Below, in pieces: positions 26,770 to 29,048 of a stretch of DNA of 64,000 nucleotides (the first letter of the stretch is position 1; the number at the start of each line of letters is the position of its first letter). The stretch comes from Chlamydiales bacterium (lineage in GTDB: Bacteria > Chlamydiota > Chlamydiia > Chlamydiales > VFKH01), in contig JARLHF010000004.1 of assembly GCA_031292375.1 (NCBI GenBank), positions 479 through 64,478 of the forward strand. The letters are read 5' to 3'. Below the pieces are notes generated by a model that had not been told where the DNA came from, did no database searches, and worked only from the letters and a program-made list of their open reading frames with translations. A program made the translations under genes and the position numbers.

Positions 26770-27552
26770 CTACGCTTCTAACTTTTCAATATGTTTATGT
26801 ATGTACTCACGAAGAGCATAACCTTCTAGGCGCTGCTGAAGCACTTTAAAATTTTCTATAACACTTCTAATATCCAATATCCCAATATCAATATCCATAC
26901 GAGGACATTGTGCCATATCTTCAGAAGGACTTTTCCAAGAACTCATTTTTTCTTTAAGTAACCCACCTACCTCTAGAGAAATTTTCTTTACTAAAAGATC
27001 TATATCCATCTGCTTATTTTCAAAAATAACATTATCTATTAAATCTTCAGCCTCTTTTGTAAGATCCCTTATTCTTACATAAAGTTTTCCCATGTTAGGT
27101 TTTGCACTTTTTAAGTTGGACATTACGCCGTAGTAACTTTCTATATCCAAACTTCCCTGCATTTCCCTTTGTAAACGATATATTTCCAGGATTCGTCCAA
27201 TACAAAGATTACCCTTTTTTATAGCGGCATCATCCAAAACCCATTTTTTTGCAACTGTCATTTTAAAGTACTGCTCAATAAAACAAGAAGTGCTTAAATC
27301 CTTTACTCGATCCCATTCATCTGGGGCAAGAAACTTATTTATAACCTCTTTTAAAGCACTAAAACAATCAGAAATTTCTTCTTCCAAAATCTCTTGATTA
27401 AGTTTAGTTTGAAGCTTTTCACATTTTGTTTTTTCTTTTTTCAAAAGATAAAAAAAACCTACCTTATCTTTTTCATCGATGGTAATTTTTTTCTTTTTTT
27501 TAAAAAAAAGAAATTTATTAAAAGCTTTTTTGAGTAGCTTCATACGATTCAT
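26770..27552 (-). CDS. Hypothetical protein, third gene of the paralogue operon
   Basis: 260 aa, Lys-rich N-terminus, helical/charged. ATGA overlap with the upstream gene. Confidence 0.6.
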   Translation of the reverse strand: MNRMKLLKKAFNKFLFFKKKKKITIDEKDKVGFFYLLKKEKTKCEKLQTKLNQEILEEEISDCFSALKEVINKFLAPDEWDRVKDLSTSCFIEQYFKMTVAKKWVLDDAAIKKGNLCIGRILEIYRLQREMQGSLDIESYYGVMSNLKSAKPNMGKLYVRIRDLTKEAEDLIDNVIFENKQMDIDLLVKKISLEVGGLLKEKMSSWKSPSEDMAQCPRMDIDIGILDIRSVIENFKVLQQRLEGYALREYIHKHIEKLEA

Positions 27553-29048
27553 CCGCCCTTTAAATTTGCAGCAATTGCAGACATTAAACCTTTAAGCGTC
27601 TGGATAATAGCAGGGCCTGCTTGCATAAACTCCTGCATAAAATTTAGCTGTAATTGTAGCTCTGACTGGTCTGTAGTACTTGTACTTTGAACACTTCCTC
27701 CAGCATTTTTTAACGTATTAGAAAAACCATTCAAAGCACTAAATACTGAAGCAAGTTTATCTTTCATACTGAGTTTTACATGACTTCCAACCACTTGAGC
27801 ACCATCTGAAAGGATTTTTGTAGTAAAAACTATTGCAGGATCATGGTTAATCTCGTACAAGAACTTTATAGCTTTAGTTGCTTGATCAAACTTATTTCTC
27901 ATCCCATTAACCATGCTAATTAACTTAGGATCAGCAGGGCTTCCGTGTGCCACTCCAGAAAGCTCTATAAGAAAATTTTCCATAGACCCTCTCCAGTGTA
28001 GCATACCTTTTAGACCCGAAGATAATCCTTTCCAAAAATTTTGCCAAAGAGTGTATTGTGCCTTTGTAGCAGGAGTTTTTGGAAAATGATGTAATGATGC
28101 AGGAAGAATCTTATTGAGTATAGTGACATCCGCCTCTTCCATAGGCCCTAAAAAATTCAAAAAAGCTGCGTTTTTTTGGATATTTTCTTGAAAAACACCT
28201 ACTTTAGCATAGATCTGCTGCATGGCTTGCCCAAATATCCACTTTTCAATTTCCCCTGCAATACCAGTGTAAGACTGATCATCGGGAACATTTACATCCA
28301 CCTGCCTTAATACTTTTTCATTTACAGAAACTCCCGACTTATTACTAAGCTCTATTAATGACCCCAAAACACTTCCTGGCTGACTTAACCCCATCTGACT
28401 TATCAACTGATTCAAAAATTGTTGCCACGTTTTCCAAACACCCGAATTTGTTGCAATGGGTGAGGTATCTTGGCTGGAAGGAGGTAACTTGATACTCACA
28501 ATTTTGTTCAATGCACTTGTTAATGGCTCATTTGGGGGTAATTGCTTAATGCCTTGCTCGATTGATGAATAAGTCTTTGTAAAATCACTTTGAAGCTGAT
28601 TTAATGTTGTCTCTTCTGCTTTGGTAAGAACACTTTGATTCGATCTAGTAGACGTGATCAATTGACTCAACTGACTTTGTAAACTTACAAGAGCAGAAAC
28701 ATGAGGAATAACACCTTCTACAGCATTTGCAAGTGTATCTGCGGCATTTTTTACTACTACAAGCGACTTTTGAGTTCCTATTAAAAAAGGTGCTTTCTGA
28801 GTTGTTTCCACATATCCATCAGGAAGCTTTATGGTAGGAATAGGCATTTCCCCTACAGAAGCTTCAGACGTTTTGCGCATTTGAATAAAATCTGTAAGCG
28901 TTTGGACGACTGGAGATAAGGCTTCTGCAGCATTTGCGCACATGGCAGCCGTACGGACATCTTCTGAAGACTCTTTTTTTGCTGCTGCTTGCTCTGCTTG
29001 AAGTGCAGATGGCTCTACACCCGAAATAGATGGATCATTAATAGACAT
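27549..29048 (-). CDS. Hydrophilic ~500-aa protein, paralogue 2, with a T3SS needle-subunit-like C-terminal helix
   Basis: No signal peptide or TM segment. Shares conserved blocks with 29072-30577. C-terminus DQSELQLQLNFMQEFMQAGPAIIQTLKGLMSAIAANLKGG. Confidence 0.7.
   Translation of the reverse strand: MSINDPSISGVEPSALQAEQAAAKKESSEDVRTAAMCANAAEALSPVVQTLTDFIQMRKTSEASVGEMPIPTIKLPDGYVETTQKAPFLIGTQKSLVVVKNAADTLANAVEGVIPHVSALVSLQSQLSQLITSTRSNQSVLTKAEETTLNQLQSDFTKTYSSIEQGIKQLPPNEPLTSALNKIVSIKLPPSSQDTSPIATNSGVWKTWQQFLNQLISQMGLSQPGSVLGSLIELSNKSGVSVNEKVLRQVDVNVPDDQSYTGIAGEIEKWIFGQAMQQIYAKVGVFQENIQKNAAFLNFLGPMEEADVTILNKILPASLHHFPKTPATKAQYTLWQNFWKGLSSGLKGMLHWRGSMENFLIELSGVAHGSPADPKLISMVNGMRNKFDQATKAIKFLYEINHDPAIVFTTKILSDGAQVVGSHVKLSMKDKLASVFSALNGFSNTLKNAGGSVQSTSTTDQSELQLQLNFMQEFMQAGPAIIQTLKGLMSAIAANLKGG

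Follow-up and report, generated by a model that had tools for sequence, protein, structure and literature searches.

Two paralogous genes and a partner gene in a chlamydial contig

We analyzed a window of 64,000 nucleotides on contig JARLHF010000004.1, from a metagenome-assembled genome (MAG) named 'Chlamydiales bacterium', in which two neighboring genes encode related proteins of about 500 amino acids (aa), here called p1 and p2, and are followed by a gene for a basic protein, here called the partner (Table 1). A preliminary description, made from the DNA letters, had aligned the C-terminal tails of both proteins with the polymerization helix of type III secretion system (T3SS) needle subunits and had put the pair forward as a candidate tip or filament protein of the chlamydial T3SS. 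We find that the two proteins belong to a very small, fast-evolving family confined to uncultured environmental Chlamydiota, and that their tails resemble needles mainly through a heptad pattern common to both, which is in phase when counted from the C-terminus; beyond this pattern, the excess at the level of single residues is modest and is greatest in p1 and p2.

With 33% identity over their full length (E = 3e-75), p1 and p2 are paralogues, as expected from the earlier mention of a duplicated ~500-aa protein. The two C-terminal strings given in the preliminary description were exact, with the right codons and coordinates (the last 41 residues of each protein, minus strand). Both proteins are named hypothetical in the databases, and scans of Pfam and NCBIfam assigned neither of them to a family. 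Hydropathy (peak Kyte-Doolittle value of 1.24 in a 19-residue window) and N-terminal composition revealed no membrane segment and no Sec signal in p1 or p2. A role as hydrophobic translocator was ruled out, since the proteins have no membrane segment.

Table 1 Features of the two-gene family locus in the window (open reading frame, ORF; isoelectric point, pI).
Feature	Position	Strand	Description
Paralogue 1 (p1)	27549..29048	minus	499 aa; ORF and translation; locus P4L16_00840, 'Chlamydiales bacterium' MAG
Paralogue 2 (p2)	29072..30577	minus	501 aa; locus P4L16_00845; 23 nt upstream of p1
Partner gene	26770..27552	minus	260 aa, basic, pI 8.9; its ATG overlaps the p1 stop (ATGA)
p1 C-terminal signature	27552..27695	minus	residues 452-499, SVQST...NLKGG; contains the 41 residues of the preliminary description (27552-27674)
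p2 C-terminal signature	29075..29218	minus	residues 454-501; part in the preliminary description, 29075-29197
p1 central conserved block	28230..28271	minus	YTGIAGEIEKWIFG; second motif of the family, W-x-W/K-I/L-F/L-G; from family alignments
p2 central block	29807..29848	minus	14 residues identical to those of p1; from the p1/p2 alignment

A small family with a conserved C-terminus

A word-indexed search through 5.8 billion proteins returned no family member other than p1 and p2. HMMER, run exhaustively over 1.84 billion representatives, added nine relatives, giving a family of 11 members. Wherever their source is named, these proteins come from uncultured Chlamydiae or Chlamydiota genomes (MAGs). 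The family and the two-gene module that it forms with the partner match nothing in Pfam or NCBIfam, and every named database copy is labelled hypothetical. The proteins are 497-692 aa long (55-75 kDa), apart from two shorter database entries (216 and 309 aa) that are pieces of longer proteins. Ser, Pro, Gly, and Gln abound in the disordered N-termini of the family, which carry no Sec or hydrophobic signal peptide and are followed by a variable middle region, helical and of low complexity, that contains poly-Pro or (AP)n linkers in some members. Most of the 11 share a central W-x-W-I-F-G block, and all of them share a C-terminal motif that reads approximately IQS.ST.TQS..L.M.YYQE.MQTAPSLIQTL..L..A.A.NMKGG(Q). 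This motif is absent from three large ORFs of the window that have no Pfam family (19315-20835 and 10552-11739 on the minus strand, 56025-57266 on the plus strand; 506, 395, and 413 aa, respectively).

A scan of GTDB genomes with a four-sequence alignment of the tail found one genome, a representative MAG (locus L005), whose family member is 692 aa long (L005:8120-10198, plus strand). In this protein, a tract of ~70 residues, poly-Pro and then (AP)n, stands directly ahead of the W-x-W-x-x-G motif. P0006, a database entry of 309 aa, is a piece of this protein, and P0003 contains a comparable AP- and TP-rich tract.

Conservation within the family peaks in the tail, where column values are 0.60-0.67 over the last ~50 residues vs 0.22-0.38 elsewhere. 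The last 46 residues of p1 and p2 include 36 identities, at a nucleotide identity of 72%, and the third codon base is shared at only 18 of these 36 identical residues. Because the third codon positions have diverged, recent gene conversion is ruled out as the source of the like tails, and their likeness points to purifying selection.

The tail shares the hydrophobic register of needle subunits

The tails were compared with real sequences of T3SS and flagellar proteins (FlgB-L, IpaA-D, MxiH/I, LcrV, YscF/I, EspA/B/D, and EscF/I). The reference copies of YscF and MxiH were 100% identical to the plasmid genes, and YscF, MxiH, and PrgI scored 88-101 bits against the needle family PF09392. The YscF C-terminus given in the preliminary description proved correct, as it agrees with the yscF gene of Yersinia plasmids.

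In a gapless alignment to YscF, p1 and p2 have 8/39 and 9/39 identities and BLOSUM62 scores of 27 and 34, respectively, the best of all registers, and they extend 2-3 residues beyond the needle end. The same register was also the best one for p1 and p2 against MxiH and PrgI, and when EscF was cut into 39-residue windows, the best window for both proteins was its C-terminus. Full shuffles of the sequences gave p values of ~0.001 for YscF and 0.01-0.02 for MxiH and PrgI, and comparison with 56,000 natural 39-residue windows gave per-window p values of ~2-4e-5 (YscF) and 1-3e-4 (MxiH). The gapless alignment first drawn for YscF is hence the best register for that needle, as it is for MxiH, PrgI, and EscF, and goes beyond simple chance.

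The register scores positive in all 11 family members. When the six frames of the window were scanned with a matrix of the needle C-terminal helix, the tails of p1 and p2 took ranks 1 and 2 among 23,588 windows (24.8 and 24.7, for a mean of -32.5 and a standard deviation of 10.9). In the reverse direction, the best window for a weighted matrix of the family fell exactly on the C-terminus of YscF, MxiH, PrgI, and EscF (scores of 14-18, z ~4), while neighboring needle registers scored -2 to -49 (~ -30 for the adjacent ones).

Most of this signal comes from an in-phase heptad. Counted over the 39 C-terminal positions of the needles, hydrophobic residues are common to the family and the needles at 6, 10, 13, 16-17, 23-24, 27, 30-31, 34, and 38. 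Neither has a hydrophobic residue at positions 20-22. Shuffling within hydrophobic and polar classes, which keeps this pattern, lifts the expected score from ~ -25 to ~ +3 to +5 and so explains most of the score observed. Against such class-preserving shuffles, the p value was 0.003 for p1, 0.006 for p2, 0.009 for P0005, and 0.015-0.21 for the other eight members.

The heptad register is not specific to the SctF needle family. Among 23 other T3SS and flagellar proteins, the best windows for the family matrix were C-terminal helices of IpaC (332 of 344), IpaB (527 of 542), and IpaD (289 of 294). These matches would fit a general 'T3SS axial or translocator tail' character, as judged from a small sample of sequences. 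The C-terminus of IpaB and the coiled coil of the tip are reported to take part in needle or tip binding (work cited in PMC3260263 and PMC10333785).

At the level of single residues, the likeness to SctF proteins (PF09392: YscF, MxiH, PrgI, and EscF) goes little beyond the hydrophobic pattern of the last ~34-39 residues. It comprises a few residues in p1 and p2 (ELQ, T, and K.LM..I) and an invariant Q of the family at the position of the needles' invariant N. Nine residues are invariant in the needle alignment (P48, L51, A52, Q55, N66, S69, D77, I82, and Q84 in YscF numbering). Among these, I82 alone is represented by a similar, hydrophobic residue in every family member, and only some members match Q55 and Q84. 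N66 corresponds to the invariant Q, and S69 to a nearly invariant Pro in the middle of the supposed polymerization helix. Needle subunits also differ in their build, being proteins of 70-90 aa with a helix-PxxP-helix hairpin, where the family has 500-690 aa, lacks the hairpin, and carries Pro inside the helix. In addition, needle genes lie in T3SS clusters with SctE/SctG-type chaperones, unlike the family gene, which lies beside aas, the partner gene, cysS, and a winged helix-turn-helix (wHTH) gene. The needle-like C-terminus of the preliminary description thus stands as a hydrophobic register, shared with four needles by most of the 11 members, while homology to SctF is not demonstrable.

The pair might represent the SctA-type tip or filament protein that is still missing from the chlamydial injectisome. 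Its C-terminal helix would pack on the needle protein CdsF as needle subunits do on one another, and the partner would block premature assembly. This is the candidacy raised in the preliminary description, and we consider it improbable. Arguments for it come from the comparisons above: the hydrophobic pattern recurs in four divergent needles at the same phase and distance from the C-terminus, down to the non-hydrophobic positions 20-22, the two tails outrank everything else in the window on the needle matrix, and the family matrix also selects the C-terminal helices of IpaD, IpaB, and IpaC. The preponderance of the heptad pattern in the score already tells against it, as do the Pro within the supposed polymerization helix and the absence of most needle-invariant residues.

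As the preliminary description had supposed in finding no firmly established chlamydial tip protein, the identity of this protein is still unsettled: a tip role was proposed for CT584 (Cpn0803) on biophysical grounds, and the crystal structure of Cpn0803 did not support it (PMC3260263). Compared by description only, CT584/Cpn0803 and our family are candidates for the same unfilled role and differ in distribution, since CT584 is conserved in Chlamydiaceae (PMC3260263) and the family was not found outside uncultured environmental Chlamydiota.

Profile comparisons with needle, tip, rod, and flagellar proteins

None of the needle, tip, or filament families gave a significant profile match to the tail, a result that the preliminary description had itself named among those that would refute its tip or filament proposal. 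With hhalign, the alignment of family tails matched the SctF needles at a probability of 1.9% (P = 0.025) over its last 18-21 columns, in the register of the gapless alignment. The probability was 1.7% when EscF was added to the SctF alignment and 0.3% for EscF alone, and reached 1.4% for LcrV, 1.0% for IpaD, and 0.3% for EspA. A hidden Markov model (HMM) of the tail scored at most 5 bits against 22 T3SS and flagellar proteins with hmmsearch. PF09392 matched neither the whole proteins nor the 11 tails, even at E <= 10, and our own needle HMM, run over 1,430 ORFs, placed family members at E = 0.36-7.5. Searches of Pfam, NCBIfam, and PDB sequences with single tails, the 11 tails, and profiles yielded no match to a T3SS family. 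A search of a large protein database with YscF itself recovered only Ysc/Psc/Asc relatives and no chlamydial CdsF.

Tip proteins of different systems are not known to be related in sequence. The negative results for the tip families therefore lower the probability of a tip function without excluding it.

Two other axial proteins were considered and rejected. The inner-rod protein SctI came up because YscI also ends in KGG, but its C-terminal gapless scores are -9 to -42 and the hhalign match (0.9%) lies in the wrong region. Yersinia YscI (L008:21108-21455) ends in ...ETLSKGG, like the ...NMKGG of the family; the rest of its C-terminus is unaligned (-40 and -42).

The other was the C-terminal motif of flagellar axial proteins (Flg_bbr_C type), which the tail could have retained from flagellar genes like those that occur in certain chlamydiae. 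Rod and hook C-termini of the form ...YQ..YQ.N...IQT.D..L..L..L would look like the ...YYQ..MQTAPSLIQTL..L of the family, a likeness that was not confirmed with real sequences, and the best window of FlgC lies at its C-terminus with a low score (2-7). The C-termini of E. coli FlgB, FlgC, FlgE, FlgF, FlgG, and FlgK, however, reached an hhalign probability of 0.3% in the wrong register, and C-terminal gapless scores were -15 to -36 for FlgE, FlgG, and FlgK. There was no match to PF06429, and no N-terminal rod motif was found. These comparisons with real E. coli Flg sequences effectively refute a flagellar rod or hook motif, and we attach next to no probability to this origin.

Predicted structure of the C-terminal half

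The full-length AlphaFold model was poor, with a predicted local distance difference test (pLDDT) score of 50, and its fold matches were discarded as meaningless. Residues 255-499 of p1 modeled on their own gave a pLDDT of 72.9 and a predicted template modeling (pTM) score of 0.61. In the numbering of this truncated model, helices span residues 9-60, 75-113, 120-148, and 173-244, with a beta-hairpin at 155-166. The first helix begins at the central conserved block, with which the predicted C-terminal bundle of helices opens. The last one, of 72 residues, is C-terminal and is modeled as a single continuous helix with no PxxP turn. The C-terminal signature occupies its end, and model confidence is 50-66 past the conserved Pro479.

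A terminal helix of ~70 residues in a long antiparallel helical assembly, as this model predicts, is also found in tip proteins (PMC10333785) and would favor a tip function. Conversely, a Foldseek search with the C-terminal model returned only generic helical (four-helix) bundles, with no tip protein among the top 50. SctA proteins (LcrV, IpaD/SipD, and EspA) would resemble the family in this predicted arrangement and also have a tightly coupled partner gene, downstream or upstream, and the C-terminal helix of IpaD is among the best non-needle matches to the family tail matrix. They differ in that the family proteins are larger and match them neither in sequence, nor in profile, nor in fold, and no mixed alpha/beta distal domain is predicted for the family beyond the one hairpin. 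They differ also in that the family is not encoded with hydrophobic translocators or a class II chaperone, and that its partner is unlike LcrG or CesAB.

A sub-threshold link to DUF720

The closest sequence-family signal of the tail is a lead: the C-terminus of DUF720 (PF05302) matches it below threshold and always in one register. The match was seen for four divergent members, p1, P0003, P0007, and P0011, all at one offset (profile minus query = 73), with E = 0.009-0.05, and DUF720 is the only Pfam family matched by more than two family members. The matches cover only profile positions 76-124 of 125, and the four are not independent. DUF720 is restricted to Chlamydia, where it comprises CT847, CT848, and CT849 of C. 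trachomatis, reported to be secreted by heterologous T3SSs (PMC3931295). Within C. trachomatis, CT848 was rated 'possibly secreted', and for CT847 and CT849 the authors were 'unable to conclude' (PMC12671076). The likeness of the family to these reported T3S (type III secretion) substrates (PMC3931295) is limited to the C-terminal ~40 profile positions in 4/11 members, and the two groups differ in size (17-19 kDa for DUF720 (PMC12671076) vs 55-75 kDa for the family) and in that only the last helix matches, below the cut-off.

CT847-849 belong to the sigma-54 regulon of C. trachomatis (PMC7482065). The window encodes a sigma-54-dependent response regulator (54467-55828, minus strand; Response_reg, Sigma54_activat, and HTH_8 domains), whose domain content would make it an activator of the type used for sigma-54 transcription in Chlamydia.

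A bolder proposal would unite the family and CT847-849 in one superfamily of T3S substrates that dock on the CdsF needle as an SctA-equivalent tip or cap, through a common C-terminal helix acting like that of a needle subunit, the partner being a chaperone that blocks assembly. We regard this as quite unlikely.

A fixed chromosomal site shared with a basic partner

In the window, aas (acyltransferase/acyl-ACP synthetase) lies upstream of the two paralogues, which are followed by the 260-aa basic ORF, cysS, and a small winged-helix gene. The order aas - family gene(s) - partner - cysS - small wHTH was found in the window, at loci L001, L003, L004, and L005, and on the contig of P0012. The shorter contigs L002, L009, and L011 show the same order over their extent, and at L010 an ATPase-like gene replaces aas. 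The winged-helix gene immediately downstream of cysS in the window (24837-25085, minus strand) encodes an 82-aa protein with weak HTH_45 and CggR_N matches, and a gene of 74-85 aa occupies its position at the other loci that reach past cysS. A promoter and terminator scan of the locus was uninformative, with counts equal to those expected from shuffles.

On the Joint Genome Institute (JGI) contig of P0012, the order is aas, a 496-aa gene with no Pfam family, a 267-aa gene, the 475-aa P0012, and cysS. Judged by position only, the genes of 496 and 267 aa may be another copy of the family gene and its partner (family, partner, family). As this arrangement differs from that of the window, the family would have been duplicated independently there.

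A counterpart of the partner, of 227-279 aa, follows a family gene at every locus examined. Aligned partners share 16-23% identity and an N-terminal F-x-F-K-K-K, and their pI is 8.5-8.9 in four of five cases and 6.5 in the fifth. The partner protein has no Pfam family, and database searches found no wider homologues of it. The lack of signal against known chaperones, together with its basic nature, ruled it out as a canonical T3S chaperone or gatekeeper.

The locus bears on the tip function in both directions. The translational coupling of p1 to the partner resembles that of LcrG-LcrV or CesA-EspA. However, the family gene never adjoins T3SS or translocator genes at the loci examined, the partner is unlike any chaperone tested, and the family is limited to a small clade, where the injectisome is, as far as is known, conserved across chlamydiae. 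Overall, the tip or filament candidacy accords with the register, the long last helix, and the coupled partner gene, against which stand the genomic setting, the narrow clade, the proline, the lost needle-invariant residues, and the lack of a fold match.

The neighbors of the family in every genome are the housekeeping genes aas, cysS, lysS, and ubiA, a setting that would also suit an unsecreted, cytoplasmic helical-bundle or coiled-coil protein complexed with the basic partner (acting, for example, in the envelope, the nucleoid, or the developmental cycle), for which the likenesses to needles and DUF720 would be coincidental. We think this unlikely, though worth keeping in view. Generic four-helix bundles as the only structural matches, a needle score explained for the most part by class-preserving shuffles, and profile tests that are all non-significant are consistent with it. 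It accounts poorly for the extreme lineage restriction, the rapid divergence, the duplication (in the window and, by position, on the P0012 contig), the variable Pro-rich linkers, and the disorder and S/P/G-richness of the N-termini. Moreover, the one family signal that recurs, DUF720, is that of a T3S substrate family.

A proposed effector-like substrate with a putative docking helix

We favor, with a probability of roughly 0.45, the reading that p1 and p2 represent a lineage-restricted helical protein, probably an effector-like or accessory substrate exported by type III secretion, with a conserved C-terminal docking helix. The protein would be exported by the chlamydial type III system. Its strongly selected tail would form a heptad-type amphipathic helix, kinked or released after the conserved proline, which may serve as an intermolecular docking element, with the co-translated basic partner, a T3SS component, or a host protein as candidate targets.

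The family has the look of proteins that interact with a host: lineage restriction, fast evolution, repeated duplication, an S/P/G-rich disordered N-terminus, no Sec signal, and variable Pro-rich linkers. Lineage restriction, divergence, duplication, variable linkers, and disorder are traits expected more often in secreted proteins that act on a host than in the core machinery of the cytoplasm. From these traits, and because the T3SS is the default export route in chlamydiae, we infer export by this system.

Several points weigh against an exported, docking protein. Secretion is deduced for the whole family from traits of its sequences, and packing within the helical bundle of the protein itself could fully account for the heptad pattern of the tail. 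The AlphaFold model, built from 11 sequences, reaches moderate confidence. The DUF720 scores (13.9-16.3 bits, in 4/11 members) lie below the 25-bit Pfam cut-off and concern ~40 residues. No T3SS gene, translocator, or recognizable chaperone stands beside the family gene in the eight loci examined, and the partner gave hhalign probabilities of at most 0.9% against 25 T3S chaperones and gatekeepers. T3S chaperones are typically acidic, unlike the basic partner.

Other features of the window

Elsewhere in the window, we noted a Fic/DOC protein with an N-terminal DUF4172 domain (36477-37589, minus strand) and a protein with SprT-like, DUF2786, and DUF7168 domains (8731-9825, minus strand). Six tRNA genes (Tyr, Thr, Val, Asp, Arg, and Leu) lie at 18016-18187 (minus), 22203-22408 (plus), 53472-53547 (minus), and 54306-54391 (minus), and the listed ORFs at 22028-22343 are not genuine, since they translate the tRNA-Val region.

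Significance

The case shows that a convincing gapless alignment with the needle helix can arise largely from an in-phase heptad pattern. The conserved C-terminal motif can be used for finding further members of the family. If p1 and p2 are merely lineage-specific effectors, they still define a new two-gene module, an orphan family with its basic partner, at a fixed chromosomal site. At the same time, the chlamydial injectisome has no accepted tip protein, and a family whose most selected part mimics the packing register of the needle is a cheap and testable candidate. The weak link to DUF720, if true, would carry the question over to a human pathogen.

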